Origin: an uncultured virus (IMG/VR IMGVR_UViG_3300010346_002377)
Taxonomy: Duplodnaviria > Heunggongvirae > Uroviricota > Caudoviricetes
Reading direction: 5' to 3' (one strand)
Virus record (IMG/VR): IMGVR_UViG_3300010346_002377
Length of the DNA stretch: 64,000 bases
Shown here: in pieces, positions 21,909 through 52,133 of the stretch
How the letters are laid out: each line of letters starts with the position of its first letter
Position numbering within the stretch: the stretch's first letter is position 1
The notes under the pieces: model-generated
Databases searched by the model: none
What the model was told of the DNA's origin: nothing
The model's input: the letters and a program-made list of their open reading frames with translations, nothing else
Made by a program: the position numbers and the translations under genes

Positions 21909-21909
21909 G

Positions 21910-23415: not shown

Positions 23416-23426
23416 GGGAGACGGCA

Positions 23427-24287: not shown

Positions 24288-24296
24288 GAGGAACCA

Positions 24297-26798: not shown

Positions 26799-26800
26799 CC

Positions 26801-26829
26801 TTGCGCCCAAGTCACCCAGCGACTATACT
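26801..26829 (+). promoter_or_regulatory. Sigma70-like promoter of the giant gene
   Basis: TTGCGC-N17-TATACT, then RBS AGGAGGAG and ATG 26855. Confidence 0.6.
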
Positions 26830-26854
26830 CCTAGGTGATCAGGAGGAGCTTTAG

Positions 26855-29800
26855 ATGTACGATTCGATCGAGTCCTTAGCAAGCGGGTTCAAGGCACAAA
26901 ATCCAGAGGCGGAAAACTGGGGCCCCAACACCACCTATTCGGCTTTGGTGTGGGTCAACCCGGAAACCAGGAACCTGGTGACCGGGTCCCCGGCTCCGAA
27001 GTATTCCAATCCCGACGAGTTTCTCCTTGGATACCGCGACGCCAACCGCGCCCGGTTTGCTTCTGCCCCGGATTCCGTCGTTCTCGACGACATGCGTACC
27101 CGCTTTCCCGTGCTGTACGACGCCTGGGGATATGGGAAGAAGGCGAAGGAGAACGAGTCCGCGCTCGTGCGGGAGGACGAAGAAACCCCGGAGGAGAAGC
27201 GGGCGAAGGAGTACGAGTCGATGTTTGGGCAGTGGTACGGCAAGCTGCCTACGCGCCCGCTCGACGAGTACGAGGCGGGCAAGCCGCTGCTGGAGCTCGG
27301 GAAGAAAAACTTGAAGGGCCGGGCGGGGTTCTTCGAGGGGCTCGCCGGGCAGCGCGCTTCGGACTGGGTCCCGTACGGGGAAATCGTTACTACCGTCGGA
27401 GACTTGGCCTCCATAACGGCCATCGGGAAGCGCATGCAGTCCGACCCGGAGTCGGTGTCCGACGAGGACACGATCAAGTTCAACTTGTTCATGCAGCGGT
27501 CGAAGCGGCTCGACGAAGGCGGGTGGAGGGCGCTGGCCGGCGACATTACGCGGACTAGCGCGATGCTCGGGCTTGAAACGCTGGCGACGTGCGGCGTCGG
27601 GGCCGCCGTCTCCATCCTCGGGCGCGTGTCGCAAGTCGGCGCCAAGGCCGGCGGCAAGGCGGCGCTCAAGGTGCTCGGCCGCGAGCTCCGGGAGGCCGGC
27701 GCGGATCTGGCGAAGAAAAAAGTGGCGGTCAAGCTGGCCCAGAAAGGCGTAGACTCCACAAAAAAGAAGGCGGCGGGGGGTCTGGCCGACGACGCCGCCT
27801 CCGCTGCGGCAAGCAATTTGGCAGCGGCGCAGGCCGACCTGGCCGCGGCCTCCGCGCGCATGTCCGCCCTGAAGGCCGCCGACGGGGCGGACACGTTTCT
27901 CGGGCGTCTGGCGGAACGGACGTGGTCGGAGCTGGCCGACGTCGGAATGGTGCCCACGAACTTGACCGGATTTTCGAAGTGGCTGAACGCGCACAAGGTC
28001 GGGGCGGCCGGCGTCAGGCAACTGGGGCAGATGGCGAGCGAGGCCGCGGCCGGGCTGCCCGGCGGCGCGCTGACCGCCGGGCTGGCCGGGCTCGGGGCGA
28101 TGGCGCTTCCGGCCGCCTTCCAGACCGGGACCAAAACGGCGATCGAGATGCTGGCTTCCGCCGCATCCGGCAACGAGCCTACGACTTCGGCCGCCGCGCG
28201 CTACCAGCTGCAGCGGATGTTCGAGGGCAAGGACGAGGGGCACGCGTTCGCCGCGGGGCTCGGCGACATGTTCATCGAGTATTGGTCCGAGTTCTCCGGC
28301 GGCGCCCTGATGGACATGATGGGCGCGGGGCTCGGCAAGCTGCCGCTGGTCGGCGGCGTGGGCCGTTCGCTGGCGAAGGCCGGCATCGCGGAACGAGTCG
28401 GAGCGGCCATGGTAAACACCCTTACGGAGGCGGCCCCGAAGGCGGCCGCCGCGGGGGTCAAGGACAAGATCGCGGCCACCATACTCCGCGTGGCGCGCAC
28501 TGGCTTCGCCACTGAGACCGGGAAGCTGGTGGACACTCCGTTCATGAGCTTCATGCGCGACGCCATGTACGACGGCGTGTTCGGCGAATGGCTGGAAGAA
28601 CGCTTCGGCGGGTTTTTGCGCGGCGTTACCGGGTTGCAGGGCGACGACCAGAAGTCGTATCTCGCAAACATCATGGAGCAAACGATGCCGGCGAACTCGG
28701 ACCAGGCGATCGCCGAGCTCGTTGCGTTTTCGTTGCCCGTTGGAGTCAACGCCGGCATGCGGCAAGCGTACCGCGTGTTCGAAAACGACAGCATGACGAA
28801 GAACTTCGAGGATGTCCAGAAGCGCGTCGTGCAGAACCTCGAGCTGATCCAAGAGGCGAGCCGGTCCGTGGAGGACAACCTGCTCAAGACGCACGTCGAG
28901 CAATCGGCCAAGGCGTTCAAAAAAACGCAGGAGGAAGAGCGCCAAGCCGAGCTCCGCGACGCGATGGCCAAAAAGCTGGCGTGGCTGGAAAACGAGAAAG
29001 CCAGCCGGGACGCTGGAAATGCTCCAGCGGCGGCGCCGGCGATGGCGGAAGACGCCGAAATTGTGGCCGCGCGCTCCGGGCTCGCCGCCGCGGAAAAGAC
29101 GCTGAACGACGCGGAGGCGGCCATCGACGCGGAGATGGAGCGTCTGCGTGAGGCCGGCGCGCCCCCGACCAGCGAGACCAAGACAAAGCTGGAAGCGGCC
29201 GCCGAGGCGGCGCGGGCCGAGATCGCTCGGCTGAACGCGGTGCTGGGGGCCGCGCCCGCCGCAACGCCGCTCACCGACGAAGCGCTGGACGCGGAAATAG
29301 AGTCCGCCAAGATCAACTTGTCCCGGTTCATCGTGCCCGGGGAAGGCGCGGCGCGGGCCGACGCGTCCCTCAAGGCGCGGAGCGAGCGCGACGAGAAGGT
29401 GGCGGCGGAGCGCGAATCCGCGAAAGTAAAGCGCGGGGCGTTCGGGCGCACCGTCGAATCGCTGGCTGGCCGAATCGGGCCGGAGTACAGCAAGTTCCGG
29501 GGGCTGCTCGACGGGCTCGTCGAGAGCGTGATGCGCGGGAAGTTTGGGTCCATCGTGACCAACGCGCCCGCCGAAGCGGTCGCGGAAGAGCTGAGGGCGG
29601 AGATCGAAAGGCGCGGAAAAGACGCAGGGCTCGACGTCACAAAAATACTGGAGCGGGTCACCCCCGAAACCGTGGCGCACTTGTCCGCGGCGTACACCGG
29701 GGCGGCGGCCCTCCGGAAAGAGGCCGACGCCATCCTGCGGCGCGGGGCCGCCCTGTCGGCGGAGCTCGGGGCCATCCGCGGCGTCCGCGGCATGGCGCTG

Positions 29801-32800
29801 TCCGTAGCCAATAGCATCTTGTCCCACACGATGGGGCTCAGCATCTACACCGCGGCGCAGTCGAAGGCGGCGGGGATCGGCGACCGGACAATGATTGGCC
29901 GCACGTTCGGCGAGCTGGCGGTGCGCACCGGGTTCGTCCCGGTGCTCGGAAACGAGCTGCACACCCTTCTGGTGGACAAAATTTCCGGCCTGCGCGACTC
30001 CGACGAATCCAGGGATGAGCGGATTGACCAATGGATAACGGAAGCGGCCGCGCGCGTGGCGGCCCACGCCATGCACAGCGCCCGGCTGTACAATTACGGA
30101 AGCGGACTCTCGGAGCGCGAGCGCCGGGTTCTCAAGGCCGGGCTGGACACCCTCGGCATGACCGACAAAACTCCGGACGACGTCGTCGGCGCGTTTCGAG
30201 CCGACATTGCGGAGTCGCGCGGAGCCCGCGTTTCGCAGGTCACCCCCGCGGCGCCCCGCGGATACGCTCCTGGTCAAGGCATGGACCCCAACATGCAGGT
30301 CCTCGTCGGGGTGCTGGCGCTCCTTCGCAACCTGTCACCGGCGACCATCGACCTCGACAACCCGGCGACGGTCGCGGCCGTCGACGCGATCGTCGCATTC
30401 TCGGCCGCCGCCAAGGCGACGGACGCGCGGGCCAAGCTGGTGGGCTCGCTCGCGTCCAAGCTGGCGCAAGTTCGCGGGAGAGACGCGGCGGAGCCGGTCG
30501 ACGTGGCGCGCGCCCAGCTGCTTTTCGCAGGAGTCTTTGCGCGGGCAACTTCCCGCCGGGCCACGCAGGAACTGTTCAGTTCTCCGACGGACGCCAAGGT
30601 GCTGTTGTCGGAGCTCGCCGCCATCTCCGCGGCGGTCCGCGATTCCGAACTGGAGGGGGCGCAGAAAGCCGCCGACGCGTTTCTGACCGTGTTCAATGTG
30701 TTTTCCCTGCACGGGGCGTCGCTTGGGCCGGTGTCGGACACGTTCCGTACAACGGGCGAGCCGGCCCCCGGCAACTTGGCCGACGCGATCGCTTCTTTGT
30801 ATATCGGCGAACCGTCGCAGGTCGGCTGGGAGCCTGGGCCCGAGGTGCTCTCGATCGCCGCCGCGAGCGGCGTCGACATCACGAACCGGGTGGCGGTCGC
30901 CGCGTTTGTGGCCAACGCCGCCAACGCGCTTCGCGTAGCGGAGGAGTCGCTCGCGGCAACCGTCGCGCCGGTTGTCGGGCGCACCCTGGAGGTGACCCGG
31001 AACGGCAAGTACGAGGAGGCCACCGTGCTGGAGGCAAACGACTACACGGTGAAAGTGAGGTTTGCCGACGGAACCGAGCGCGCTTTGGCGCGCACGGAGC
31101 TCGACGACCCAAGCTCCGTGCGCCCGGCCCCCGTGATCCGGAAGTTTGTGCTCGTGCCCGGCGTCAGGACGTACGTGGGCACGCGAAAAGCGATCGACGA
31201 GATGCTCGGAGGGCAGCAGTCGCGCGAGCTGGCCCCGCACATTTACGCGAGGGAAGACCGGGAGGAGAGCCCGGACGACATCTTTATGTTGCAGGAGGGC
31301 GCCGTAAACGACCCCGGCACGGGCGAAGTTCGGTTTTCCATTCTCGGGCACGGCGGGCTCGCCGGGCTCGCGGAAGACACCTTCGAAATTATATGGCGGC
31401 AGGCCAGCCCGCTGGACGACGGGATGGACATTCCGGCCGCCCTGCTGCCGTATTTTAAGACGATGCTCGAGGTGCTCGCCAGAGCGGCGCCCAATAAAAA
31501 GTCGGCCGGCGACTTCGCCAGAAAGTATTTGGAGACCGCGCTCGGAGAGCTGGAAGCCCCTGCCGGCTCCGAGGCCAACGCCCGCGGGCGCCGGTCGCTC
31601 TTCGAGTTTCTTATCAAGGCCGCCGTGCTGTACAAGGCCGACCACAATTTGGTGCGCGACCACGAAAACCGACCGTCGGTGTTCTCGCTGGCGGCGGAGG
31701 TGCACGCGGCCTATTCCGCGCTTGGCCTGTCGGAGGACGCCAAGAAAACCGAGGGGTCTGCCGCTACGTCGCAGGACCAGGCGGCGTTCATCAAAATAAT
31801 CCACGACGAGCTCAAAAAGCGTGGGCTTACGGACGCGCTGCTCGCGTCGCTCATGTACCGCGGGGCCGTGACCGAGTGGGTCGATTTGCCCGGCGCCGAG
31901 GGCGCCCGCGCCCGCAAGCAGGAGGCCGCGTCCAGCCGGCTTTCCCGCAAGAAGGAGCCAAAAACGTACGCCGGAGCCATCCCTTCCAAGATTCCGCCCG
32001 GGTCGCTGGCCGTGGTAAAAAACGACGACGGCTCCCTTCGCGTGGTGAAGACGGCGGCGGCCGGCGCCGTCGCGCGGTCCGGGGGCATCCGGACCGTCCC
32101 GTTGGAGCAATCCATTCCGGCCCCGACGGTCACGTCGTCCGGGGTCGTCGCGCACGGAGGCGCGGACGTCGGGCGGCGCGTGGCCCCGCTGGGCCCGACG
32201 GCGCGCGTCGCCCAGGTAGAGGAAGCAGGGCCGGTGCGCGATGCCGTGCTGGCTTACACCGAGGCCATGGACGCGCGCATAAAGTTTCTGAGCGAAACGA
32301 CCGTCAAACTTTTGGATGGCGCCGAGGCTACGCTTTACCAGCTGTTGCTTACTCGAAAAGGAAGGGACGCCGTGGCCGCGCTAGGTTTAACGGGGTCGCA
32401 CGAGTCCCTTGTGCAAGCGCTGACCAACCACACGGGGACCGCGCCAGAGGTTGTCGCTGGCTACAAGGACGTCGACGACGCGCTCGTCGCGGCGTGGGAC
32501 GCGCTGGAGCGGGCGGTAGCCGCGGCCAATTTGCCGTTCGGGTCCCCGTTTTCCGCGGTATACGGGAGCAACATGCACACGGACCCCGTGGTAAGGCCCG
32601 ACCAGGTCGTGGAGCCCTACACGGACCCCAAGACAAGCAAGCAGCGTTGGCGCGTGCGACCCGGAAAAATGTTTTCCTTCGTAACCGGGTACCTCGGCAA
32701 ATTTGCCGGCGGTGAATCGGTGCAGGACGTAAGGCGGCGTGGCGGCGCCGATGCCCTGCGGCTCAACACGGCCCTCGAATCCGGCGAAGTAGTCGGCGAG

Positions 32801-35800
32801 TTGGTCGCGGCGTTGCTGTCCGACCGCTCGGCCCCGATCCCCGGGAACGCGGCGCTGACGGCGCTGCGGGACGCGCTGTTCGAAGGCGCCCCCAGCAACG
32901 CGGTGGCGTCCGTCGAGCCTGTGCTCCGCGACGCCGGCGACGGTCCCGGGTTTGTGACAATGGTCGACCTTCTAATAACGTGGAAAGACACCGCCGGACA
33001 GAGCCGGTTTCGCCATGTCGAGATCAAGACGCGCGCCGCCCCGAAGGGCGCGAATCCGGCGGCCACGCAGACCAACTATTACTGGGAGACGCAGCCGAAT
33101 CACAAAATTTCGGAGCGGGACAAAAACATCCTGCAGACGTACATCACGCACAAGATGCTGACCGACCACGGCTTCGTCGGGGACTCTTACCTGCTCAACG
33201 TTGGCGTCCCGGGCGGGGCCGCCGACGCCGGCAAGCTGCTGGCGGCAAACATCAGCATATTGAACCCGGACAGAACCGGAGCCTCGACCGTTACGGCCGG
33301 CGACATCGCGCGAAGCGGGCTGTCCGCCGCGACCGTGCACGTGTCCGACTTGCTCCGCGATCAAAAAGAACGCGCGCTGCTGGAAAACATGCGAGCCGCG
33401 GTTCTTGCGTTGCTCCCACAGAGCGAGGCTCCCGCGGCGACCCCGCCTCCGAGCACGCCTCCGAGCACGCTTCCGAGCGCGGCTTCAATCCCCGCCACCG
33501 CGCCAGAGGCCCCGCCCTCCGAGCGCGAGGCCGTCGACGCGCGCGATAAGGCGGAGCTCGAGGCTCTCAAAAAGGCCGTTAAGGAGGAACTCGAAAAGTC
33601 TGCGACCGCGGCCGCGCTGGCCCGACATCTAGCAGACTTGGCGGCTACGGACGCCGCGGGCGCCGCACGTAGGGCCAACCCAGCCGACGAGTCGCTGGAT
33701 GCCGCTTATAGGGCGGCTATTCTAAAGGAGGACGCTTCCAAGGAAGAGTTCCTTAAAACGATTACGGAAAATACGGTGGCGGACGCGGTCGAGGCAATCC
33801 CGGCGGAATACGATTCGTTGATTGAAGACATGGCCGCCCCCGTAAGGGTGCTTGGCGGGCTTCGGGCGGCGGCGCCCTCCGCCATCGACAAGCTGTACAT
33901 GGCCGCCTACAAGAAGAAATTCACGGATGGGCGGACCATAGAGTTCGTGGCGCCCGGCACCGGGTTTCTCAACCCGCTACACGCCAGGGACGGTACCGGC
34001 CTTGTAGTCAAAGGTACTTATTCGTACCTCATTAAACAAAAAGACGGGACGATTTACAGAAAAGCGAGGGTGCTCGTCGAGGGCGGAGAGGCCCGCGAAA
34101 AAGAACTCACCGCCCTTTTCGCGAAGCCCGCGCCGGAGGCGGAGCCTTCCGAGGCGGAGAAGTCGCCTGCTCCCGCGGCGACCCCGCCTCCGAGCACGCC
34201 TCCGAGCACGCTTCAGAGCACGCCTCCGAGCACGCTTCCGACCCCGCCTCCGAGCCCCGGCTCCGATGATTTCGAAGGGTTCTACGACCCGCGCCTGCCA
34301 ACCAAATCCACGACCCCGGGGCCGGTTGTGGCCGTCGCGAGCGCGGAAGTTACGGAAGGAAGCAAGCTGGTGGTTGGCGGCGGCGACGAGCACCGGCTCG
34401 TGATGGAGGCGCTGCGGCGCGTCGTCGGATCGGACGACCAGAAAACTTCGAGCAAGAAGGCCGGCGCCCTGCTGGCGGCGCTAAGCGTCGGCTTTGCGCA
34501 GGCCGTTAGCTCCAAGAAAGCAAACAAAACCCACGTTCGTACGTTCTACACCGCTTACCTGGAAGCCGCGAAACTGGGTTCCGGAAGGCAGCCCGCCGGG
34601 CTGCCCGGCGTTGTTGCGGCGATGGCGGCGCGCCCCGTCGGCGAAAACCCCGAACTGGAGCGGGCCGTCGCAGAGCTGTCGGCACCGCTGGTAAGCATGC
34701 TCATGTCTCCGTTCTTCGCCCAAACGCGCAAGCGCGTGGGGCTGACCGAGACCGCCTTGTCGCTTCCGGAGGCGTTCGCGGCCGCGGCGCTGGCCCTGCG
34801 GTTGCACCGCTCGCCCGCCATGATGGCCCACGGAGCCGAGTATGCTCTGGCCGGCGCCGCCAAAACCGCCTCGGACGCGGACCGGGCCGCACTCAAAAAA
34901 ATCATTGATCTTGTGGGCGCGCTGGACAAAAACGCGGCGCTGGCGGAGGAGCTTGCGCGAGCCGCCGCGCTTTCGCGAATGCACGAGTTTATGGGAGCCC
35001 CGGCCGGCGGGCTGGCGGAGGTTGTCGGCGCAATGGAAGCCGCCGCTCCGGCGTCCATCGCCGACCTGGCCCAGGAAGTTACCGACACGTACGACGGCGA
35101 CAAGCGCGCCGTGGCCCTGGCGGAAGACAACCGGGACCAGGTGGAGCTGCTCGGGAGGCTGGTCGCCGGGGTTCTGCCGTCGGCCCTGGCGACTTCGGAC
35201 ACCCTGAACTACATGCTGTCCGACCGCGACGTGTACGATGCGTACGCGTACCAGGCGAACCTGCAGGCGTTGCAGGATCTCGAGAAGCAGCACGGCGCGG
35301 ACCTCGGAGCGGCCGGGTACCCGGCGCACCCGATGGCAGGCCGCGTTCGCCCGCTCAAGTTGGAGAAGTTCGAAAACGATTTCCTCGACGCGGCCGCGAT
35401 AGCCGGAATGTCCTACGCGCAGTTTGCCAAGTTGATGCACGCGGCCCGAGAGCGCCAGATACAGCTGCTGGAAATCGACATGGCGACGCTGGAGCTCGGT
35501 CCGGCGCGCGGGTCGGCCGGGCAGTCGGCCGACATGTACCGGGCGTTTGCGGCGTCGCTGCCGGCCGTGTTGCTGGCCCCGCGCACAGCGCAGGATTTCC
35601 ATAACGAGGCCGCCGCGATCGAGTTGTTCGCGAAAGCAGCGATCGGGAAAAGCAAGAGCGGAGTCGAGATGCCCCTCGGCGCGGTGTTCCCCCTGCTTAG
35701 CGGGTACGTCCGCGCCGAGCGCGCCCGGGCCGCCGGGCAGTCCCCGGCCGAGATGGCGGCCGACGACAAAGAGAGTTTCGACCGCGCGCTGGCCGCGGCA

Positions 35801-38800: not shown

Positions 38801-41800
38801 ATAGAGCGTGGCGAAGTGGACCCGGATGCTCCCGCGGCCGTCGCCGGAGTCCCCCTCGCGCCGCTGCCCAAGCAGACCGATGCGGCGATCGCCGCCAAGT
38901 CTTCGTTGCTGGGCAACAGCACGAACGTCGTAATCGACATGCTGAAGATGGCGTTCCGCGGGCGCCTTGAGCTGGAAAGCCGCCCGTACGCGTTTGCTGC
39001 GTGGGTGCTGTCGAGCGAAATGGAGATGCCCCCGGGGCGCGAGGCGGAGCTTCGCGGCCGCGAGGACCCGGAGACCATCGCGGGCCTGCGCGCTGACAAG
39101 ACGACGGCGCTGCACACGCTGCAGGCGTGGTCTGACTTCTGGGAAACCGACCCCGGAGCCCTCTTGTACGCCGAGGCGATGGAGGCCGTGGACGCCGACA
39201 AGAGCCGGGCTGCGCGCCCGCGCATGTGGTCGGGAGAGTTCGGAATCAACGCGGCGCTGGTCGAAGCATACAAAAAGAGGCCCGGCGTGTCCGGAGAGGG
39301 GATGCTGGACAAGAAGAGCTCGGACTACCGCAAGTTTATGAACCTCACTCGCAACGTGCGGGCGCTGTTCAGGGCCGGCGAAGAGTTGTCGCGTATCGCA
39401 TCCATAATGAAGTTTGCGGTGAACCCGGCCGGCTACTCGGTTGGAAAGATTCTCTCGGCGTTGGCCGTGCGGGACGCCATGCTGGAATCGGCCGCCCTCG
39501 CCAAAGCCGAGAAGGTAGAAGGCGCGAAGCCGCCAGTCGATCCGTTCACGTACGTCGACGTTTCCCGCATGGTGGAGTCGCCGCTGTTCAAAGTCAACAG
39601 CGCCGCGATCGACAAGGCCGTCGCCGCGCTTAGGCAGAGCGGCGTGCTGTCGAACGAGCGGATATTCGGCTGGTTCCGAAACGAGCTTTCTACCGGAGGG
39701 TTGTCGACACGCGCGGCCGATGCCGTGCTTGCGGCGGCGCAGTCCTCGTTTTTGCAGGAAGCGCTGCTGAGCAGGCTCCCCGCCGAGCTGCAGGCATTTC
39801 TGACGAAAGCTGCCGACATCTACCGGTACGGGCACATCGCAGGCGCGTCGGCGACGGAGAACGACCCCGCGCCGGGGTACGGAGTAAACGACGGGGGCAG
39901 CGTAGACGACGGCCTCGTGGACGGGGTGTTCCCGGAAGCGCAGCTGCAGGTTGCGGTTGAGTTCAGCGCCCTGACGGAGCAGTCCGTGGGCGCCGACGAG
40001 GAGTCGTCCGACGAAGGGCCGGCGCAGGACGAAACGGCCGCGGATTTTGAAGCGTCGAAGCCGCGAAGGCCCGTCGGCTCCTCGGCCGTTACGCTCCGCC
40101 GCTTTGAGGCGCAGGACGTGGCCGGCGCGCTGAACGAGATCATGGTTGACAGCCTCGCGTCGCAGATGTCCATATTTTTCCAGGACCTGTTCGACAAAGC
40201 GCTGGAGAGCGGCGTTCGGTTGAGCAAGAAAAAAACGATGTTGCTGGCGACCGCGCTCGACGTCGTGGAGACGCACTGGTCGCGGATGCCGCGCCTGAAC
40301 AGCATCGACGACTCGAAGACTCGGTGGGCCTACGAGCGCACCGAGGAGAGGGACGCGTCCGTTGTAATGGCGCCGGCCATGTATCCGGCGATCCGCGCAA
40401 TCGGCGCGACAACCAGCACCGACGAAACGACGAGGCGCGCGGCCGAGCTGATTGAAGTCATCAAGCAGCTGGTCGACAGCGGCAAGCAGTCGTCCACGCT
40501 CGAGTTCAAGAACAATATCCTGCAGCTCCTCGTGCCCGCCCCGCTCGCCACCGCCAGGGCCGCCGGAGTCACAAAGCTCAACGAAGACGAGAGCAACGCG
40601 GACACATACAACCGCGTCAACGCGTTTGTCGGCGAGAGAGGCGGCCGCCTGTACGTCGCCGTGCAAACGCTAGGCTTCAGCATGGAGCTGAGCGGGGAAA
40701 AAATACTGGACATTATGGCCTACCTGACGGCCGGGCAGTTCGGGCGCCCCGCATTCAAGCACGGCGACCCGCTCCCGTATTTCCCCCGCGAGCACCACGA
40801 AAGCGTAGCCGCCGAATATCAGGCGGCCATCGCCGGGCTTTCCCAAGACTTCACCGAGCCGTTCATGGACTTCGTGAAGGCGTCCGTGACGCGCCGCCAT
40901 TCCCGCAGGGCGCCCGCCGCCAGGGTGGTGCAGGCGCTGGTCTCCGGCCGCCCGCTGTCGGGGGAAGGCGCTGCGCCTATTGCCAGCCCGGCAGACTCCG
41001 AAAAGATGCTCAAGCGCATACGCGAGCAAGAAGCCGCCGCGGCCGCCGTGCGCCTCGGTACCCCGGTGACCAGGTCAATGTCCGCCAACGTCGCCGATGT
41101 CGGCGGGACGGCGGGGCAGGCGCGGCTCGCCGCTTCGATGGATGCCGCCGTGCGCGCGCGCGACTTCGTGCGGGCGCGCCTGTTGTTCGATGAGTTCGTA
41201 GCCCTGACCGAAGGGCACCGGGACTCGGCGGCGCGCTCCTACGACTACAACAAAAACGCGAAAGCGCAAGAGCGTGCCGCGGAGTCGATGTTGTTTTATG
41301 CGAACAAATGGCTACGGGAAGAACTTATGCCGGCGGAGGCCGCCGAAGAGGCGGAGGCGCACCGGCGCGGGCGCGAGGCGGCCGCGGAAGCGTTCGGCAG
41401 AATCGTGGCGGGCGAGGCCCCGCTTGACGAGGGCACCCCGGGGGTGGTCTCGATTGACCGCGGGATCGCGAGGTTCGACCGGCTCGCCGACGAGGCCGGC
41501 GTGGATGCGCGCGGGCTTTCGCCGCTCGCGGCTTCGGCGGCCGCCCGGCTGTACGAGGCCGGCAACGGGAAAAAAGTGGAACCAATTTTGTTCCCGGCCA
41601 TAATCCGGGCCGCCCGGTCGACTCTCGACGGGGAGTGGGCCGCCTCGTCCAGGGACCTGTACGCGGTGTTCCGGGATCTGGGGCTCACCACGGAGTACAC
41701 CGACGCGGCGCAAAACCGCCTTTCCGGAATCGCGGTAAACCGGCTTCTGGACAGGGGGGCCTCGCGCTCCATGTCGAACTATTCCACGATCCTGTCGGGG

Positions 41801-44800
41801 CTGGCCCAATCCATCGCGAACGTGGGCGGCGCGGAATACTTCAACAAGGTGCAGCAGCTGCTCAACAACATGGACCACTCCATAAGCATCCTGGCCGCGG
41901 CCCACCTGGACCAGCTGGACACGCTGTTTGGGCAGGGCCCCGACCGTTCCATGGTGTACCCGCAGACGGACGTAGCCGGGCACACGCTGCGCAAAAAGCG
42001 CAAGAGCGGGCACGAGCTGTCCGAGCTGGAGCAAAACCAGGCGATCATCGCGCGCGCCGTCGTCATCGCCGAAGCGGAGGGCCGCGAAAAAACCTTGCCC
42101 TACAAGGACGAGACCGGCCGCGTTCGTTTTGCGCCGCTTGTCGCTTTTGGCAACCACGGTTTTATCCACACCACGCTGGAACAAATTGGCGGCTCGTCTG
42201 GCGCGATCGCCCGCAAAGTGCTGGACGCGAGCGTCTATGTCCGGCGCAGCGACCCGGAGGGCTCGACCACGTTCTTGTCGAAGGCCGCGGCAGCCAAAGA
42301 AGTGGCCGCGGCCATACGGAAGCTGTCGCCGACCGAAACCGCCGAGCTTCTGGGCGGCGTGGCCATAGCCAACCCGACCGCGCGAATGGCCGTGTTAACC
42401 ACCAAAATGTTTGGGGTCCTGTTTGTAAACGGGCAGGCCGGCATTCCGCAAATCAATCGCATAAGCGACAAGGGAGAAGTTCTGTCTCCGTTCCTCACGC
42501 TGGACTTCGCGCGGGACTACTTGGCGAAAAGCGAACTGTTCAAAACGCTTCGCGAGAAAGGCGGGCGGACCGACGCCGACCTCGACTTGGCCGCCCAGGC
42601 CAAGAAGCTGGTCGACTTCACTACCCGCATCCACGAAATGGTGTCGAGCTACGCCGCCGCCATACACCCCGGGACGCAGCGCCCGGTCGGGTTCGCTCGC
42701 GGGTACGTCCGCCACATGTTTGGCGGCTCCGGGTTCGAGGATGCCCTGCACGCGAAATGGCGCCGCATCGTCAACCAAGAGGCGCTCGTGCGGGGCGAAC
42801 GCTCCGGTGCGGGCTCCCGCCTGTCGGCGGCGGCGCTCGAGCCGGACTTGGCGGTGAAGTCGCCGGCCGACCCTTCGCAGATCGCGCTGTTCGATGATCT
42901 AGTGCGGGAGCTGGAAAAATTGACTGACACCGACTACGCGGACAAGTTCCGGGACGCGCGCAAGGACTGGGGCAAATACGACTACAACTTCCACATACAC
43001 AAGCTCGCCACCCGCATCGAGGTCGAGATCGCCGTCAACAACGCGAAAACCGGGCAGCTCTACGAACTTCGGCCAGACCGGGCGGCGCTCATCTATGGCT
43101 TGAAGAACTTCTTCCGGGAGAGCCCCGACGAAGGCAGGTCCCCGGTTGCCGGGGCGCGCACGTTCGCGTCGTACGCGGAAGCCCTGATGGCGTCGGGCGG
43201 AGAGTACGCCCCGCTTATCACGGACCCGGCGCGCCTGGCTGCGCAAGCGATCCGGGAGCTGGTGGACTACGTGGTGACTACGTCGCTGGCCGGGTTGGCG
43301 GTAGCGACGGTCGACGCGAGCGGGCTCCCGCTTATGCTGCCGGGGCTGTTGCCGGCGCGGGCGAGCGAAGACCCGAAGGAGCGCGGCCGCCCGGTTCTCA
43401 CCCCGATACCCCGGTGGGCGCTAAGGCGGCTGGCCGAGTACCTGTCGTACCGGGAGGGCGTCAAGCTGAACCCGGGGCAGCCGCTCGAAGAGCAAGTGCA
43501 GCGTTTGGTGACAAGCACAAAGGCGGGAGCCCACAACCAGTATGTTTCGCTCGACCACAACATGGCCGGCGTGGACCACCTCTACGTCCTAAAGGAGTCC
43601 AACGCGTCCCGCTATCTGGCCAAGCTGTTCCAGCGACCGGCGAAGATGATGTACGGGAACCCGGCAGGGTACCAGTACGATTTCCTGCACCAGGCGGCGG
43701 AAGTCAACGCCGTTCTGAAACAGATGGCCCTTGGGTGGAGCGTGTTTTTCGGCACCGCCGGCTTGGAGTCGGTGACGGCCGGCACCACGCTGTCGCCGCT
43801 GGGCAACATGGGACTGCCGCTCATGCCGTGGCAGCTGCACCAGTACAAGCTCATGTGGGAATTCGGAAAGAAAGTCCGAATGAACACTATCGAAGCCGCC
43901 GAGACGATGGCGGAGTTGACGCGCAGCGGGATGCGGCTGACGGAACAGGCTTCGACGGAGGGCGCGCACTCGGCGCTCGACCGGGTAATCGAGCGCGTCG
44001 CCATGCGCACCAGCGACCGGCACGGCGAGAAAGCCGGACGGGTCGCCCGCGGGGTGCTGAAGCACGCAACGGGCCGCTACGTGTCCGAGTGGCTCATGCG
44101 CGACTTCTTCGGAGGGCTGAAAACATGGGCCGCGATGAACGCCATGGACGAGCTGGCCTACAACCTGCCGACGCTCACGCGCTCGCAGATTGCGGCGGAG
44201 GTCGCCAACACGGTCAACAACGCGTTCGGCGGGCAGAATTTCACGCGCTACGCGTTCTTCACTCCGCGCATGATGCAGCTGCTTACGCTTGGGTTCTTCG
44301 CCGTCAACTGGACCGTGTCGGCGTGGAACGTGGCCGGAATGGGAGTGTTTACCGCGGCGCTGCTCGGCACGCGGTCCAACAACTACGAAGCAAAGTTCAT
44401 TTTCCGCAACTGGGCGGCCATGTATCTGTACGCGCTGATGCTGGTGCCGACGATAATGCAGGCCGCCATATATGGGCTTAGCCGGGCGCTCCCCGACCCG
44501 GACGACCCGGAAGAGCTGAAAGCGATGCAGGACGACCGGATGCTGGCGTGGAACAACGAGCACGGAAAAGGCGGGTTCTTCCCGTCGATCGACTACACGC
44601 CGCTTGCCCGCAGGCTTCGCACGCTGTTTGGCCAAGAGTACAAGGGCGCCCCGACGGGCAAGCGGCGAATCTACTTCCGGTTTGGCAAGCAAAGCTACGA
44701 AGTGCTGGACGGGTGGCTGCAAGACCCCGTAGCCACGGCGGGGCGCAAGTCGTCGATGCTCGTCAAGGTGGCCTGGGAACAGCTGTTCAACCACTCCCCG

Positions 44801-45427
44801 GGGTCCCCCGACTTCAAGCTGCCCTTCGACAGCGTAGGATTTTTGGCGGGGCTGGCCGGAAGCGACGTCGGCTTCCGCGGGTCGCGCATTGCTACTTTGC
44901 TGTCCAAGCTGCTTCCGATGTCCTTGTCGTCGATCGCGACGAACCCGGACGCAGGGGTGCTGGTGGCCCTGGTTGCGCCCGCGTCGAAGGGCATGAGCCA
45001 AACCCGGGCGATCCAGGCGGCGCAGGCGGCCCTGGAGGAGGCCGCGGAGCACAAGCCTGTAGGGAAGTTCCGCGGGCGCCCCGCGCAGCCAATAAACAAG
45101 CTGGCGGTGGCCTCGGCAGAAATGGACGCGGCCGCGCGCAACGGGTACGACGTGGACACGATCCTGACCTCGGCGTATGGGGCGGTAGCGCCCAAATACT
45201 ACGCCAAGTTCTACGAAGCCTACTTGTCCGGCGACACGGCGGCCTTGTCCGGCGCGGCGAAGGCGCTCGTGCGTCTCGGGGCCACGACGAAGGGGCTCGT
45301 TCAATCGACCGAAGGCCGGAATAAAAAAACCGGAAGGGGCAAGCTGACCGACGAGGAGAAGGCCGTGCTGGTCGAGGCGTTCAACAACGCGGTCCCTCCG
45401 CTCCTGCAGACTTTAACAAAGGAATAG
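26855..45427 (+). CDS. Giant (6,190 aa) polyvalent virion protein containing a putative two-barrel DNA-dependent RNA polymerase and a PD-(D/E)XK nuclease
   Basis: Uninterrupted 18.6-kb ORF with strong RBS. NRIPT (38144-38158) precedes GSDVDADTL (DxDxD at 38330-38344); upstream LDG, MKP and AVKV motifs; VDLL...VEIKT...LQTY nuclease motif at 32963-33142. Confidence 0.75.
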   Translation: MYDSIESLASGFKAQNPEAENWGPNTTYSALVWVNPETRNLVTGSPAPKYSNPDEFLLGYRDANRARFASAPDSVVLDDMRTRFPVLYDAWGYGKKAKENESALVREDEETPEEKRAKEYESMFGQWYGKLPTRPLDEYEAGKPLLELGKKNLKGRAGFFEGLAGQRASDWVPYGEIVTTVGDLASITAIGKRMQSDPESVSDEDTIKFNLFMQRSKRLDEGGWRALAGDITRTSAMLGLETLATCGVGAAVSILGRVSQVGAKAGGKAALKVLGRELREAGADLAKKKVAVKLAQKGVDSTKKKAAGGLADDAASAAASNLAAAQADLAAASARMSALKAADGADTFLGRLAERTWSELADVGMVPTNLTGFSKWLNAHKVGAAGVRQLGQMASEAAAGLPGGALTAGLAGLGAMALPAAFQTGTKTAIEMLASAASGNEPTTSAAARYQLQRMFEGKDEGHAFAAGLGDMFIEYWSEFSGGALMDMMGAGLGKLPLVGGVGRSLAKAGIAERVGAAMVNTLTEAAPKAAAAGVKDKIAATILRVARTGFATETGKLVDTPFMSFMRDAMYDGVFGEWLEERFGGFLRGVTGLQGDDQKSYLANIMEQTMPANSDQAIAELVAFSLPVGVNAGMRQAYRVFENDSMTKNFEDVQKRVVQNLELIQEASRSVEDNLLKTHVEQSAKAFKKTQEEERQAELRDAMAKKLAWLENEKASRDAGNAPAAAPAMAEDAEIVAARSGLAAAEKTLNDAEAAIDAEMERLREAGAPPTSETKTKLEAAAEAARAEIARLNAVLGAAPAATPLTDEALDAEIESAKINLSRFIVPGEGAARADASLKARSERDEKVAAERESAKVKRGAFGRTVESLAGRIGPEYSKFRGLLDGLVESVMRGKFGSIVTNAPAEAVAEELRAEIERRGKDAGLDVTKILERVTPETVAHLSAAYTGAAALRKEADAILRRGAALSAELGAIRGVRGMALSVANSILSHTMGLSIYTAAQSKAAGIGDRTMIGRTFGELAVRTGFVPVLGNELHTLLVDKISGLRDSDESRDERIDQWITEAAARVAAHAMHSARLYNYGSGLSERERRVLKAGLDTLGMTDKTPDDVVGAFRADIAESRGARVSQVTPAAPRGYAPGQGMDPNMQVLVGVLALLRNLSPATIDLDNPATVAAVDAIVAFSAAAKATDARAKLVGSLASKLAQVRGRDAAEPVDVARAQLLFAGVFARATSRRATQELFSSPTDAKVLLSELAAISAAVRDSELEGAQKAADAFLTVFNVFSLHGASLGPVSDTFRTTGEPAPGNLADAIASLYIGEPSQVGWEPGPEVLSIAAASGVDITNRVAVAAFVANAANALRVAEESLAATVAPVVGRTLEVTRNGKYEEATVLEANDYTVKVRFADGTERALARTELDDPSSVRPAPVIRKFVLVPGVRTYVGTRKAIDEMLGGQQSRELAPHIYAREDREESPDDIFMLQEGAVNDPGTGEVRFSILGHGGLAGLAEDTFEIIWRQASPLDDGMDIPAALLPYFKTMLEVLARAAPNKKSAGDFARKYLETALGELEAPAGSEANARGRRSLFEFLIKAAVLYKADHNLVRDHENRPSVFSLAAEVHAAYSALGLSEDAKKTEGSAATSQDQAAFIKIIHDELKKRGLTDALLASLMYRGAVTEWVDLPGAEGARARKQEAASSRLSRKKEPKTYAGAIPSKIPPGSLAVVKNDDGSLRVVKTAAAGAVARSGGIRTVPLEQSIPAPTVTSSGVVAHGGADVGRRVAPLGPTARVAQVEEAGPVRDAVLAYTEAMDARIKFLSETTVKLLDGAEATLYQLLLTRKGRDAVAALGLTGSHESLVQALTNHTGTAPEVVAGYKDVDDALVAAWDALERAVAAANLPFGSPFSAVYGSNMHTDPVVRPDQVVEPYTDPKTSKQRWRVRPGKMFSFVTGYLGKFAGGESVQDVRRRGGADALRLNTALESGEVVGELVAALLSDRSAPIPGNAALTALRDALFEGAPSNAVASVEPVLRDAGDGPGFVTMVDLLITWKDTAGQSRFRHVEIKTRAAPKGANPAATQTNYYWETQPNHKISERDKNILQTYITHKMLTDHGFVGDSYLLNVGVPGGAADAGKLLAANISILNPDRTGASTVTAGDIARSGLSAATVHVSDLLRDQKERALLENMRAAVLALLPQSEAPAATPPPSTPPSTLPSAASIPATAPEAPPSEREAVDARDKAELEALKKAVKEELEKSATAAALARHLADLAATDAAGAARRANPADESLDAAYRAAILKEDASKEEFLKTITENTVADAVEAIPAEYDSLIEDMAAPVRVLGGLRAAAPSAIDKLYMAAYKKKFTDGRTIEFVAPGTGFLNPLHARDGTGLVVKGTYSYLIKQKDGTIYRKARVLVEGGEAREKELTALFAKPAPEAEPSEAEKSPAPAATPPPSTPPSTLQSTPPSTLPTPPPSPGSDDFEGFYDPRLPTKSTTPGPVVAVASAEVTEGSKLVVGGGDEHRLVMEALRRVVGSDDQKTSSKKAGALLAALSVGFAQAVSSKKANKTHVRTFYTAYLEAAKLGSGRQPAGLPGVVAAMAARPVGENPELERAVAELSAPLVSMLMSPFFAQTRKRVGLTETALSLPEAFAAAALALRLHRSPAMMAHGAEYALAGAAKTASDADRAALKKIIDLVGALDKNAALAEELARAAALSRMHEFMGAPAGGLAEVVGAMEAAAPASIADLAQEVTDTYDGDKRAVALAEDNRDQVELLGRLVAGVLPSALATSDTLNYMLSDRDVYDAYAYQANLQALQDLEKQHGADLGAAGYPAHPMAGRVRPLKLEKFENDFLDAAAIAGMSYAQFAKLMHAARERQIQLLEIDMATLELGPARGSAGQSADMYRAFAASLPAVLLAPRTAQDFHNEAAAIELFAKAAIGKSKSGVEMPLGAVFPLLSGYVRAERARAAGQSPAEMAADDKESFDRALAAAPRLVAKAFSIMVDALKLAGVDRTNPEMFGQFVALSDGGTVGNLPASSRAAMGAYAAGMLDAWAKAHEVASVEMKKANVSNEADRYAVGAAAFEAAFDRLGRPRRDERARGRRHRAESLIDAAYAGRYRNAHVGHKTIPTGVAVPPAAEALMRSGAVLDFYRVVSANIGGSDLGAISINDLSEARLKDAMDAIISKARRLDPDDDSSPMVRLVPMLMTDRSALLVLVFREDALNERVAEVVAELTRELASEPAGDLYNQMKRALDVYSGSTSDKLFAAATLMEAESTFGKAALRSLFSNSEYFKRFRQIVSGGRQVPMLNTKELPEGIMRVLAVGSKDQKGFKITWEPEFDIGSSDFIGDDLDGALMLFDDVFSLIASALGEEGVSSLKITNVGYRTLAAGHALGGRAVITHMKPMALNLDEWIETERVRNKHSCGNHAWPNFYSMFAEAFKAAPQFEGVHGVATGAVKVVAEGTDAESKIQRHELPLMWNGKKVATVSFYAREAIVFAETFAQTAYMDKESEEAEDELNKGTIAALAAARPEVAAALGNWRAHQQLADKLLSGADEAARDEADTINAISESLALFDFDAFPQYAELLPAAHPYLENIYRNVRVKKLGRRLTPQMKRAKAVIMGDPYGSTGVTPTIFDEKGNVVSAATFRSNSNKYSGLQGAIRVLRGFRTIAGTERDLSDRALRRRLAAELQLALDISEVPKDTKLTESQIEQMKGLDKYFREEWGGSLSYLKSLAGLRDPRSGQVDASGLAMRLDERTGDILVFPTVGYINRIPTSPYASHDAAWYLGAATMVEGFEMVRAQDGSVKKMKRAVSGRKNISIIHPETARVWGSDVDADTLNMTYMVPPGPWVGEAELHNLPETSDPAELRRRMAWNAYYFSYHLYRAALTQPWVAMEGRGLFANVADHVVIKDWGSLTPAAAGPGEIGEQGKRALHPYYAVLPEVALPLDAVAGRSGGRGPLVLAQDMVAVLLNELPEGGLFKQARAPFKIERGEVDPDAPAAVAGVPLAPLPKQTDAAIAAKSSLLGNSTNVVIDMLKMAFRGRLELESRPYAFAAWVLSSEMEMPPGREAELRGREDPETIAGLRADKTTALHTLQAWSDFWETDPGALLYAEAMEAVDADKSRAARPRMWSGEFGINAALVEAYKKRPGVSGEGMLDKKSSDYRKFMNLTRNVRALFRAGEELSRIASIMKFAVNPAGYSVGKILSALAVRDAMLESAALAKAEKVEGAKPPVDPFTYVDVSRMVESPLFKVNSAAIDKAVAALRQSGVLSNERIFGWFRNELSTGGLSTRAADAVLAAAQSSFLQEALLSRLPAELQAFLTKAADIYRYGHIAGASATENDPAPGYGVNDGGSVDDGLVDGVFPEAQLQVAVEFSALTEQSVGADEESSDEGPAQDETAADFEASKPRRPVGSSAVTLRRFEAQDVAGALNEIMVDSLASQMSIFFQDLFDKALESGVRLSKKKTMLLATALDVVETHWSRMPRLNSIDDSKTRWAYERTEERDASVVMAPAMYPAIRAIGATTSTDETTRRAAELIEVIKQLVDSGKQSSTLEFKNNILQLLVPAPLATARAAGVTKLNEDESNADTYNRVNAFVGERGGRLYVAVQTLGFSMELSGEKILDIMAYLTAGQFGRPAFKHGDPLPYFPREHHESVAAEYQAAIAGLSQDFTEPFMDFVKASVTRRHSRRAPAARVVQALVSGRPLSGEGAAPIASPADSEKMLKRIREQEAAAAAVRLGTPVTRSMSANVADVGGTAGQARLAASMDAAVRARDFVRARLLFDEFVALTEGHRDSAARSYDYNKNAKAQERAAESMLFYANKWLREELMPAEAAEEAEAHRRGREAAAEAFGRIVAGEAPLDEGTPGVVSIDRGIARFDRLADEAGVDARGLSPLAASAAARLYEAGNGKKVEPILFPAIIRAARSTLDGEWAASSRDLYAVFRDLGLTTEYTDAAQNRLSGIAVNRLLDRGASRSMSNYSTILSGLAQSIANVGGAEYFNKVQQLLNNMDHSISILAAAHLDQLDTLFGQGPDRSMVYPQTDVAGHTLRKKRKSGHELSELEQNQAIIARAVVIAEAEGREKTLPYKDETGRVRFAPLVAFGNHGFIHTTLEQIGGSSGAIARKVLDASVYVRRSDPEGSTTFLSKAAAAKEVAAAIRKLSPTETAELLGGVAIANPTARMAVLTTKMFGVLFVNGQAGIPQINRISDKGEVLSPFLTLDFARDYLAKSELFKTLREKGGRTDADLDLAAQAKKLVDFTTRIHEMVSSYAAAIHPGTQRPVGFARGYVRHMFGGSGFEDALHAKWRRIVNQEALVRGERSGAGSRLSAAALEPDLAVKSPADPSQIALFDDLVRELEKLTDTDYADKFRDARKDWGKYDYNFHIHKLATRIEVEIAVNNAKTGQLYELRPDRAALIYGLKNFFRESPDEGRSPVAGARTFASYAEALMASGGEYAPLITDPARLAAQAIRELVDYVVTTSLAGLAVATVDASGLPLMLPGLLPARASEDPKERGRPVLTPIPRWALRRLAEYLSYREGVKLNPGQPLEEQVQRLVTSTKAGAHNQYVSLDHNMAGVDHLYVLKESNASRYLAKLFQRPAKMMYGNPAGYQYDFLHQAAEVNAVLKQMALGWSVFFGTAGLESVTAGTTLSPLGNMGLPLMPWQLHQYKLMWEFGKKVRMNTIEAAETMAELTRSGMRLTEQASTEGAHSALDRVIERVAMRTSDRHGEKAGRVARGVLKHATGRYVSEWLMRDFFGGLKTWAAMNAMDELAYNLPTLTRSQIAAEVANTVNNAFGGQNFTRYAFFTPRMMQLLTLGFFAVNWTVSAWNVAGMGVFTAALLGTRSNNYEAKFIFRNWAAMYLYALMLVPTIMQAAIYGLSRALPDPDDPEELKAMQDDRMLAWNNEHGKGGFFPSIDYTPLARRLRTLFGQEYKGAPTGKRRIYFRFGKQSYEVLDGWLQDPVATAGRKSSMLVKVAWEQLFNHSPGSPDFKLPFDSVGFLAGLAGSDVGFRGSRIATLLSKLLPMSLSSIATNPDAGVLVALVAPASKGMSQTRAIQAAQAALEEAAEHKPVGKFRGRPAQPINKLAVASAEMDAAARNGYDVDTILTSAYGAVAPKYYAKFYEAYLSGDTAALSGAAKALVRLGATTKGLVQSTEGRNKKTGRGKLTDEEKAVLVEAFNNAVPPLLQTLTKE
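33428..34214 (+). repeat. 46-bp exact direct repeat (33428-33473 and 34169-34214) with internal 12-bp units, encoding PAATPPPSTPPSTL linkers
   Basis: GCTCCCGCGGCGACCCCGCCTCCGAGCACGCCTCCGAGCACGCTTC is present twice. Confidence 0.9.
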
Positions 45428-45471
45428 CGCCCCGGCGACCGGGCGACCAGGCGACCTCCTGCGCCGATCGC

Positions 45472-45500
45472 TTGGCTCGCCGGGGACATTGTGTTAGGAT
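45472..45500 (+). promoter_or_regulatory. Sigma70-like promoter
   Basis: TTGGCT-N17-TAGGAT with extended TG, ahead of RBS AAGGA and ATG 45537. Confidence 0.5.
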
Positions 45501-45536
45501 GTTTGTTGCGGGCAGCCCGCGAAGAAAGGAAAAATC

Positions 45537-45842
45537 ATGATTGGGAAACTGGTGAAGAGAGCCGCTGTGTCGGCGGCGCAGGCGAAGTACGACAGGATCA
45601 AGGCGAAGAACGACGCGGCGGGGCGGCCGTCCGGCCCTCGCCCGGGCACGGTGTACAGCCCGAAGGGGCCGCAGACGCGCGGCCCAGAAGCCTCCCGCGG
45701 CGGGCTGGCGCAGTTCGGGACCCGGGCCATCGACCGAATGAACGACAACGCCGGCATGCTCCGCAGCTTCGCGAACAAAAAGCCCGGCCTGACGGGGCAA
45801 CGCAAGGCGCAGCTGAAGGCGCTGTACCGCGCGTCGAGGTAG
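45537..45842 (+). CDS. Small basic hypothetical protein
   Basis: RBS, GC3-rich codons, K/R-rich. Confidence 0.6.
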   Translation: MIGKLVKRAAVSAAQAKYDRIKAKNDAAGRPSGPRPGTVYSPKGPQTRGPEASRGGLAQFGTRAIDRMNDNAGMLRSFANKKPGLTGQRKAQLKALYRASR

Positions 45843-46409: not shown

Positions 46410-47060
46410 CTATTCTTCGGAATCCTCGTCGACGTCGATCGTCTGGAGCTCCGGGTTGACTTGCATGGGCCCGATCTTCTGGCGCTGGGCCGGGCCGGCG
46501 CCGAGGTTGAACGAGATCAGCGGGCGCTTGTTGTTGGCGGCCGCGGCCTTCGCCAGGGCCTCCACCATGGGCGCCTGCTGCTGGTTGCCGGACAGGCTGA
46601 CGGAGCGCGCGCCGACGGCGCTGGACTTCTCCAGCACCTCGGAGAGCGTACGCAGCGTACTGATCGACTTCTTCAGGTCCTCGCAGACGTTTTGGAAGTC
46701 GGGCGAGTCCGGGTCCTGCACCTTCTCCGCGAGCTTGCCTACGATGTCGACGAGCTTGTTGGAAATTTCAAGGTGCTTCTCGGCGGTGGGCACGCGGTTC
46801 TTCAGCAGGAAGTCGACGTACGCCGCCTGCTCCGCCCGCTGCGCCTCCGCGATCGCGGTCTTCTTCAACTCCACCAGCCCGAACTGCTTCAGCGCCAGCT
46901 TCACCACGGCCGTTGAAACGCCGATGTGCATGCCGATGTCCGTGATCGACATGTTCGTGTTCATGTAGTCGTGGGTCAGCTTCGTGACCGCGTCGACGGA
47001 CATGTCGAGCGGTTTCTCGGGCGTCTCGAAGTCGAACGGGACTGGAAGAGTCTCGGCCAT
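46410..47060 (-). CDS. HTH protein, probable terminase small subunit
   Basis: N-terminal HTH SITDIGMHIGVSTAVVKLAL, two long helices, C-terminal ISFNL strand and TIDV tail typical of TerS. Confidence 0.5.
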   Translation of the reverse strand: MAETLPVPFDFETPEKPLDMSVDAVTKLTHDYMNTNMSITDIGMHIGVSTAVVKLALKQFGLVELKKTAIAEAQRAEQAAYVDFLLKNRVPTAEKHLEISNKLVDIVGKLAEKVQDPDSPDFQNVCEDLKKSISTLRTLSEVLEKSSAVGARSVSLSGNQQQAPMVEALAKAAAANNKRPLISFNLGAGPAQRQKIGPMQVNPELQTIDVDEDSEE

Positions 47061-47063
47061 CGT

Positions 47064-47339: not shown

Positions 47340-47391
47340 GTTTCTGGTCTCCTTGCGGCCGGGTTGTGCGGCCATTGTTCTGCTCATGTTA

Positions 47392-47697: not shown

Positions 47698-47701
47698 CGT
47701 T

Positions 47702-49945: not shown

Positions 49946-49956
49946 GGCGGTTCCTC

Positions 49957-52040: not shown

Positions 52041-52090
52041 GGGCAATTTGAAAAAATTTTTCGGGCTCGCTCCCGCGAGCGGCGCGGGAG

Positions 52091-52128: not shown

Positions 52129-52133
52129 CGCGG

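Follow-up and report, generated by a model that had tools for sequence, protein, structure and literature searches.

The uncultured virus record IMGVR_UViG_3300010346_002377 of IMG/VR (64,367 bp, CheckV completeness 96%) possesses a single open reading frame (ORF) which makes up 29% of its length. The window analyzed here, a stretch of 64,000 nucleotides, represents bases 1-64000 of this record. The ORF is located at 26855..45427 on the plus strand and encodes a protein of 6,190 amino acids (aa), referred to here as the giant. The gene is real and conserved, the phage is an uncultured high-GC phage from wastewater, and the gene product represents a new orphan family of giant proteins in phages of wastewater systems. 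The family is probably virion-delivered and possibly polymerase-bearing. Sequence comparison with the beta-prime subunit of E. coli RNA polymerase reveals in the giant a catalytic signature of beta-prime-like type, for which the statistical support is moderate. We propose, at slightly less than an even chance, that the giant is delivered with the virion and consists of several modules, among them a divergent two-barrel polymerase core.

A preliminary description, made from the letters of the window alone, had reported one ORF of 18.6 kb, and this ORF was confirmed as an ATG-started frame of 6,190 codons and a stop. A Shine-Dalgarno sequence, AGGAGG (26841..26846, +), is situated about 8 nt before the ATG at 26855. 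The GC fraction of the ORF by codon position is 0.66/0.48/0.84, matching the other real genes in the window, and the GC content of the window is 61-69% along its whole length. The protein contains 16.2% alanine and only 2 cysteines. Its cluster at 90% identity has five members, which originate from assemblies of JGI, ENA and MGnify; four have 6,190 aa and one has 6,174 aa. The other members differ from the window protein by 4, 9, 9 and 21 substitutions, which concentrate at aa 2225-2477, and no stop codons were found in them. Among the public runs listed, 20 of 21 contained part of a 10-kb probe and 8 contained at least half of it. The positive runs came from activated sludge, anaerobic digesters and wastewater and represent 11 studies from 2016-2025. 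Contigs from all the four runs examined covered 30 of 30 bins of 26500-45800. One of these runs, X6, is an RNA library with contigs across most of the giant gene; since DNA carry-over is possible, these contigs are no evidence of expression. In run X4 the gene was recovered in contigs of 6,670 and 11,561 nt, with breaks only at repeated linkers. The fragmentation of assemblies at these proline-rich repeats (33.44-34.23 kb) is what would be expected if the ORF were a misassembly chimera, the doubt raised in the preliminary description, or separate genes read through by error. Against this, five assemblies of different origin agree, a full-length collinear relative exists, the codon-position GC is gene-like across the ORF as a whole, and the only variant joints in the repeat region have lengths divisible by 3 (588 nt skipped in X4 and X7, 75 nt in X4). 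As the five assemblies are intact, the four runs are all covered and the relative of 5,979 aa is collinear from end to end, the ORF is not considered a chimera, and this explanation is given hardly any weight.

The relatives of the giant are very few. A phmmer search of 1.84 billion representatives, with aa 3251-4450 as query, yielded three proteins, namely the giant itself, a fragment of 73 aa and P0003. P0003 is a protein of 5,979 aa on a 44-kb contig from another metagenome (E 5e-92, 31% identity in phmmer). BLASTP aligned the two giants in five collinear segments which cover aa 2-6190 except 2118-2704 and 4332-4612. The identity is 41% in aa 2-745, 24% in aa 731-1360, 27% in aa 1422-2118, 26% in aa 2704-4332 and 40% in aa 4612-6190, and it rises to 64% over the last 411 aa. 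On this basis a conserved N-terminal module (aa 1-745; 26855..29089, +), a poorly conserved region (aa 746-1360; 29090..30934, +), a central conserved module (aa 2704-4332; 34964..39850, +) and a C-terminal conserved module (aa 4612-6190; 40688..45424, +) were distinguished. Comparison of aa 5560-6190 with shorter proteins revealed five C-terminal metagenomic fragments on short contigs (P0128-P0132), which are 44-55% identical and align to the very end. Another metagenomic protein, P0133 (1,797 aa, 38-kb contig), has a C-terminal stretch homologous to the hydrophobic module of the giant at aa 5787-5902 (BLASTP E 9e-16). It carries HEYFH in its N-terminal region, has no Pfam match and possibly represents this architecture in a shorter form. 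The searches of IMG/VR, GTDB genomes and JGI metagenomes returned only an identical copy, and a word-indexed search of proteins of 3,404-10,833 aa returned only the giant's own cluster. When three parts of the giant were compared by tblastn with 50,697 GenBank phage records, two had no match and one had a single match at E 0.6; two neighbour proteins from 2139-26798 had no match in the same records. The suggestion of a different phage lineage made in the preliminary description is thus supported. No description of the family was found in the literature; the family is nameless, and this is hence weak evidence of absence from print.

The beta-prime-like catalytic-barrel signature is situated in the central module at aa 3762-3837 (38138..38365, +). 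It consists of NRIPT and then IIHPETARVWGSDVDADTLNMTYM, followed by VPP (aa 3837-3839), which extends to nt 38371. The signature has the form NRIPT ... IIHPETARVWGSDVDAD ... VPP, generalized as NRxPT ... HP-5-W-2-DxDxD ... P, and it is conserved in P0003. The context is NRIPTSPYASHD ... ISIIHPETARVWGSDVDADTLNMTYMVPP in the giant and NRVPTAPNASH ... AVHQAVATEWGSDNDADELRTTWMRPP in P0003. The corresponding context of E. coli beta-prime begins with NRAPTLHRLG, and its spacing of H-P, five residues, an aromatic residue, two residues and DxDxD is identical in the giant. The giant contains three copies of DxDxD, about the chance rate, and of these P0003 conserves the aa 3826 copy alone. The loop around this copy reads GSDVDAD (aa 3824-3830) in the giant and GSDNDAD in P0003, the one other full-length member. 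D3826, D3828 and D3830 are candidate metal ligands.

The signature was evaluated with two blocks of E. coli beta-prime, LLNRAPTLHRLG and the DFDGD block, which were scored as an ordered pair on the alignment of the two giants and compared with 3000 global and 3000 local column shuffles. The best ordered pair was found at aa 3762 and 3813 with a score of 39.5, while the null means were 15.1 (global) and 18.7 (local). In this test and in a search with the signature as a regular expression, both designed after the motif was seen, 39.5 was reached by 0/3000 global and 2/3000 local shuffles, and the expression was matched by 0/20,000 shuffles. When scored by itself, the DFDGD block peaked at the signature site across the entire protein, with a score reached by 6/3000 and 9/3000 shuffles. 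In an hhalign comparison of 60 windows of the giant with E. coli beta-prime, the window with the motif ranked 1st-2nd by a small margin (17.4 vs 17.1 at the next unrelated site). BLASTP against gp66, the polymerase of the crAss-like phage phi14:2, paired GSDVDAD with GSDFDID and RIPT with RIPN in low-scoring segment pairs. An ESM Atlas feature search with aa 3251-4450 placed 23 of 30 matches in a set whose best cluster (0.91, Uroviricota) has the RNA-dependent RNA polymerase (RdRP) family PF05183 on 76% of its members, at a recognition value (1457) below the level for strong evidence. The top three matches were viral clusters without names (0.91-0.95). Two other readings of the Asp loop, as a HAD phosphatase and as a pol-beta nucleotidyltransferase, were rejected by eye for misfit of the motif spacing.

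Several results weigh against the proposed reading, beside the late design of the two tests and the modest Atlas value. PF00623 and PF05183 had no match on the genome at E<=10, with the PF00623 control positive in 14/14 control genomes, and neither family appeared in the Pfam search of the giant in tiles. Hidden Markov models (HMMs) of 120 crAss-like polymerases, those listed of 643 matches, gave the giant scores no higher than those of its shuffles. When the motif window was compared with the crAss core by hhalign, the right motifs were paired, but with P 0.032, and in the control with 60 windows the motif window was only 6th-7th against this core. A wider hhalign comparison aligned a different place (P 0.41). 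An ordered test with the ten best-conserved crAss blocks gave 31.9 against null means of 31.3 and 32.4, and this score was reached in 126/300 and 165/300 shuffles; the catalytic block does have its best match at aa 3822. The search for a second, beta-like barrel with E. coli beta blocks did not rise above shuffles; its best match in the expected zone was GVHGVATGAVKV (aa 3434), with a score of 10.5, below the null mean of maxima of 13.5. AlphaFold2 of aa 3131-4330 with a two-row alignment gave an unusable model, with a mean pLDDT of 32.6 and no residue of at least 70. When the giant was divided into 15 overlapping tiles of 800 aa, none of the 15 reached a curated cut-off in Pfam or NCBIfam, none matched a PHROG at E<=0.01 and none matched PADLOC at E<=0.5. 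The library searches also recognized no structural gene around the giant. Membership in any described polymerase family was not established by the profile, hhalign or ordered-block tests. Of the RNA polymerase motifs claimed in the preliminary description, what holds is the NRIPT ... VPP signature, conserved in P0003 and supported by shuffles, while profile and fold comparisons gave no confirmation.

No T7-type single-subunit polymerase family was present among the Pfam matches of the 15 tiles at E<=1, and both halves of the giant had 0 matches among PDB sequences at E<=1. The best Pfam row was LPD14, a polyvalent-protein domain, at aa 562-603 within the N-terminal module (E 0.041), which is sub-threshold at 14.3 bits against a cut-off of 27. 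Weak purE/AIRC matches at aa 2523-2620 (E 0.007) were taken as noise from an Ala-rich stretch. Pfam gave no match on the C-termini of the giant and P0003. AlphaFold of the C-terminal module with a nine-row alignment had a mean pLDDT of 46, and only a terminal helical bundle (aa 6099-6184; 45149..45406, +) was modelled at 72-82. The strongest Foldseek match of this model in BFVD (E 1e-11) was A0A516MBM4_4, which is piece four of a long viral protein; its identity is 21% and its TM-score only 0.25. The E values of the rest were 0.02 or higher, and these weak rows were polyvalent-protein, nuclease and tape-measure pieces. The model is too poor for a fold conclusion from these matches. The ESM Atlas look-alikes of the C-terminus carry LPD38 or LPD39 (0.92-0.93), and as they share fewer than 170 features they are a lead only.

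The negative results at family level would also be expected if the giant were a virion or ejection ('internal') protein without polymerase activity, in which the GSDxDAD loop would be another metal site or a structural site and the chain would act as channel, plug or anti-defence cargo. The chance-level number of DxDxD copies and the nature of the C-terminal Atlas and Foldseek look-alikes, which are polyvalent-protein and tape-measure pieces and not enzymes, agree with this explanation. It does not account for the conservation in P0003 of the aa 3826 copy alone, for the NRxPT and HP-5-aromatic context at exact beta-prime spacing (0/3000 and 2/3000 shuffles), or for the Atlas matches of the central module, which point to the RdRP family. 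We consider a giant without polymerase activity rather unlikely, and put the chance of a real polymerase module in the giant at a little over one half.

Outside the polymerase-like site, the preliminary description had named several further domains. The segment called Tudor/SH3-like (aa 1376-1425; 30980..31129, +) is retained here by its position, and it has no Pfam match. The zincin-like region (aa 1430-1640; 31142..31774, +) was delimited by alignment with P0003 and has no Pfam match. In this region FEFLIK of the giant (aa 1583-1588; SL-FEFLIKAAV) aligns with HELFH, an HExxH motif, of P0003 (SLAHELFHKMAV), and therefore the predicted metal site is lost in the giant and kept in P0003. The degenerate zincin is thus upheld by the motif, but profiles support it in neither protein. 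A PD-(D/E)XK-like nuclease motif, D2038 ... E2056-I-K2058 (32942..33040, +), is present and conserved, as MVDLLITW ... RHVEIK of the giant aligns with MFDLVVSW ... VVELK of P0003 (D2066, E2088-L-K2090); it is a motif without a profile match. The hydrophobic ends were found at the positions claimed, but they are only moderately hydrophobic (1.5-1.63). The two N-terminal segments, aa 237-255 and 404-422, are Ala/Gly-rich with Kyte-Doolittle means over 19 residues of 1.5-1.6, and the aligned columns of P0003 reach only 0.75-1.26, so this pair is not conserved as hydrophobic. A single C-terminal hydrophobic helix, AAMYLYALMLVPTIMQAAI (aa 5854-5872; 44414..44470, +), is conserved, with a value of 1.63 in the giant and 1.45 in P0003. 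Taken as a whole, the domains predicted in the preliminary description were largely not recovered by profile and fold tools, but motif-level signals survive, namely the beta-prime-like signature, HExxH in the relative only and D...ExK.

The Pro-rich linkers of the preliminary description were confirmed as two by repeat search. Linker 1 (33416..33496, +) is a PPST linker with a 12-nt periodic repeat, and linker 2 (34157..34261, +) is near-identical to it at a spacing of 741 nt. The assembly P0005 is without 16 aa of linker 2. Between the linkers there is a variable cassette (about aa 2232-2427; 33548..34137, +) which is not conserved in P0003, and the inter-linker segment collects most of the substitutions among the five assemblies. 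In runs X4 and X7 an in-frame joint of 588 nt (33548 to 34137) bypasses the cassette, with the caveat that additional sequence between its two flanks is possible. The depth in X4 is 70 for the contig with the skip and 21.3 for the insert contig. The variation of the cassette looks like an exchange of cargo through recombination between the linkers.

The gene context was analyzed by codon-position GC, which distinguished a plus-strand block at 2139-46229 and a minus-strand block at 46410-63582. The giant is the last large gene of the plus-strand block. The minus-strand block contains a DUF5906 primase-helicase, PolA (PHROG E 4e-62), a PD-(D/E)XK/DUF2800 (Cas4-like) exonuclease and a ResIII/DEAD-type helicase. 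No replication genes were recognized on the plus-strand block; the recognized ones are all on the opposite strand. The plus-strand block has one tail-fibre hint at 13649-14359 (E 5e-4), and no terminase, portal or capsid protein was recognized in 2139-26798 by Pfam and PHROGs, even at E<=0.5-1. The designation as a virion protein therefore rests on position and precedent. We infer virion location and injection from the position at the end of the late block and by analogy with N4 gp50, crAss gp66, P23-45 gp96 and the virion-associated Burro giant. The injected virion protein of the preliminary description accordingly keeps gene position and these precedents in its favour, and is presented here as probable.

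The same context bears on a non-virion, intracellular protein, either a scaffold or factory component or a late polymerase which stays in the cell. This alternative would explain why no library identifies a structural gene around the giant. It fits poorly with the position of the giant on the strand opposite to all recognized replication genes, next to a tail-fibre-like gene block, and with the known giant phage polymerase fusions and the Burro giant, which are all reported as virion components. An intracellular role is regarded as improbable. A further alternative, a tape measure protein fused to a polymerase in a long-tailed phage, like gp96 of Thermus phage P23-45, was given still less weight. 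The domain inventory resembles that described for gp96, the protein is Ala-rich, its low-confidence models are mostly helical, and tape measure or minor tail proteins appear in weak Foldseek rows (E 0.19-0.5). But the gene 5' of the giant encodes 833 aa and is not a small chaperone pair. Only two small ORFs of 101 and 127 aa lie downstream of the giant before the strand switch, so there are no distal-tail genes downstream. The polymerase-like signature is mid-chain and not N-terminal, and no tape-measure family matched in the Pfam and PHROG tiles. Such a tape-measure fusion is quite improbable.

Some other features of the window were observed. Just upstream of 26798 the contigs of X4 and X6 leave the window sequence with the same 30 unmatched letters in both, and therefore the gene preceding the giant differs between populations. 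Four tandem copies of a 57-nt unit, encoding 19-aa repeats, are present at 15177-15448 inside a 733-aa ORF of the late block (14862-17063), and three of the copies are 98% identical. Tandem repeats of 12 nt of the GCAGCCGGAACA type are present at 10147-10214 within a 399-aa ORF (10034-11233). At the left end of the record, an ORF at 111-911 has a PAS fold (PF08447, E 1e-11); a PAS-domain protein is also among the structural genes listed for phi14:2. No promoter-like repeated motifs stood out in the repeat search, and the tRNA scan found no tRNA.

Among described systems, crAss gp66, P23-45 gp96 and N4 gp50 appear functionally closest by analogy, and the polyvalent proteins are the closest architectural theme. 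gp66 of Cellulophaga phage phi14:2 is a crAss-like virion RNA polymerase of 2,180 aa (PDB 6VR4). The papers credit gp66 with "limited sequence similarity" and gp96 with "no detectable similarity" outside DFDGD. The signature of the giant, present without a family match, resembles this published picture. Like the giant, gp66 is a large single chain encoded last in the structural block. It has a GSD-x-D-x-D catalytic-type loop after R-I-P, without the glycine of DFDGD, and most of its chain is without recognizable domains. The giant has no detectable kinship with gp66 (HMM, hhalign and ordered-block tests were at noise level) and no PHROG match; it is three times longer and belongs to a high-GC phage with a different replication module.

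P23-45 gp96 is reported as a tape-measure-fused two-barrel virion RNA polymerase of 5,002 aa with metallopeptidase and membrane domains. According to this description it shares with the giant a very long chain, a DxDxD signature, and metallopeptidase-type and hydrophobic segments, and is otherwise unlike known polymerases. Unlike the giant, it has an N-terminal polymerase and measures a long tail, while the signature of the giant is mid-chain in a locus which is not tail-measure-like. The N4 polymerases are fused to zincin peptidases (Iyer et al. 2017, PMC5512222). N4 gp50 and the polyvalent proteins follow the logic proposed for the giant, in which a giant packaged in the virion and encoded next to late genes joins a polymerase module to a peptidase of zincin type and to further modules (PMC5512222). 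The N4 polymerase is T7-like and not two-barrel as proposed for the giant. Of the polyvalent-protein domains only LPD14 appears among the Pfam matches of the giant at E<=1, below cut-off, and the HExxH motif is lost in the giant but occurs in P0003 and P0133.

Among cultured phages, the closest analogue is the gene of more than 13 kb of the Microbacterium podophages. In Burro this gene encodes gp27, which is reported as a virion-associated, probably processed protein whose role was stated as unknown; the virion-associated giant of these podophages has more than 4,400 aa. The Akoni genome has 54 kb and 60% GC, and its gp31 (17984-31447), of 4,487 aa and unknown function, makes up 25% of it. The Microbacterium podophages and the phage of the giant have high-GC genomes of 54-64 kb in which one gene represents 25-29% of the genome, and their capsid genes are hard to recognize. 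Akoni also has a replication block with PolA, primase, helicase and a Cas4-like protein on the other strand. gp31 has 0 cysteines in 4,487 residues, compared with 2 in 6,190 in the giant, and it also carries R-S-P ... SHDNDGD. The best BLASTP match between gp31 and the two giants had E 0.24, and the identity between the PolA proteins is only 22.5%. The Akoni giant is the first gene of its block, beside the portal gene, while the present giant is the last.

In the proposed multi-module reading, the giant would be packaged in the virion and ejected into the host along with the DNA. For early transcription, its central module would provide the catalytic barrel of an RNA polymerase of the cellular, two-barrel type, with D3826, D3828 and D3830 predicted to bind the catalytic magnesium and a second, beta-like barrel putatively situated upstream in this module. 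The two terminal modules, which are strongly conserved, may serve packaging, tail passage and envelope crossing. By comparison with polyvalent phage proteins, the zincin-like region may be the remnant of a processing protease and the D...ExK region an accessory nuclease. The cassette between the Pro-rich linkers would be dispensable cargo, gained and lost by inter-linker recombination. A more ambitious version holds that an independent lineage packs its whole infection-starting machinery in one chain of 680 kDa, whose ends cross the envelope and which also carries a nuclease, a self-processing protease in decay, a two-barrel RNA polymerase in mid-chain and exchangeable linker-flanked cargo; we hold this version to be possible, with the balance of evidence clearly tilted away from it.

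Injected RNA polymerases start phage transcription without the host enzyme, as in N4, the crAss-like phages and P23-45, and they bear on the origin of single-chain cellular-type polymerases. The family of the giant is widespread in wastewater and sludge, as it was found in 11 studies from 2016-2025. With 6,190 aa the protein is larger than the published Microbacterium phage giants, which their authors ranked among the largest viral gene products, and no part of it was recognized by the annotation libraries searched. The variable cassette flanked by linkers represents a natural case of module exchange within a giant protein. If the polymerase reading is true, the giant would represent a new lineage with an unusual all-in-one architecture. 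If the whole infection-starting machinery is indeed packed in one chain, it would exceed all known virion-delivered polymerase proteins in size, and injected polymerases of the cellular type would have arisen separately a third or fourth time. If the polymerase reading is false, 6,190 conserved residues without a recognizable domain would represent a large unexplored piece of phage biology.

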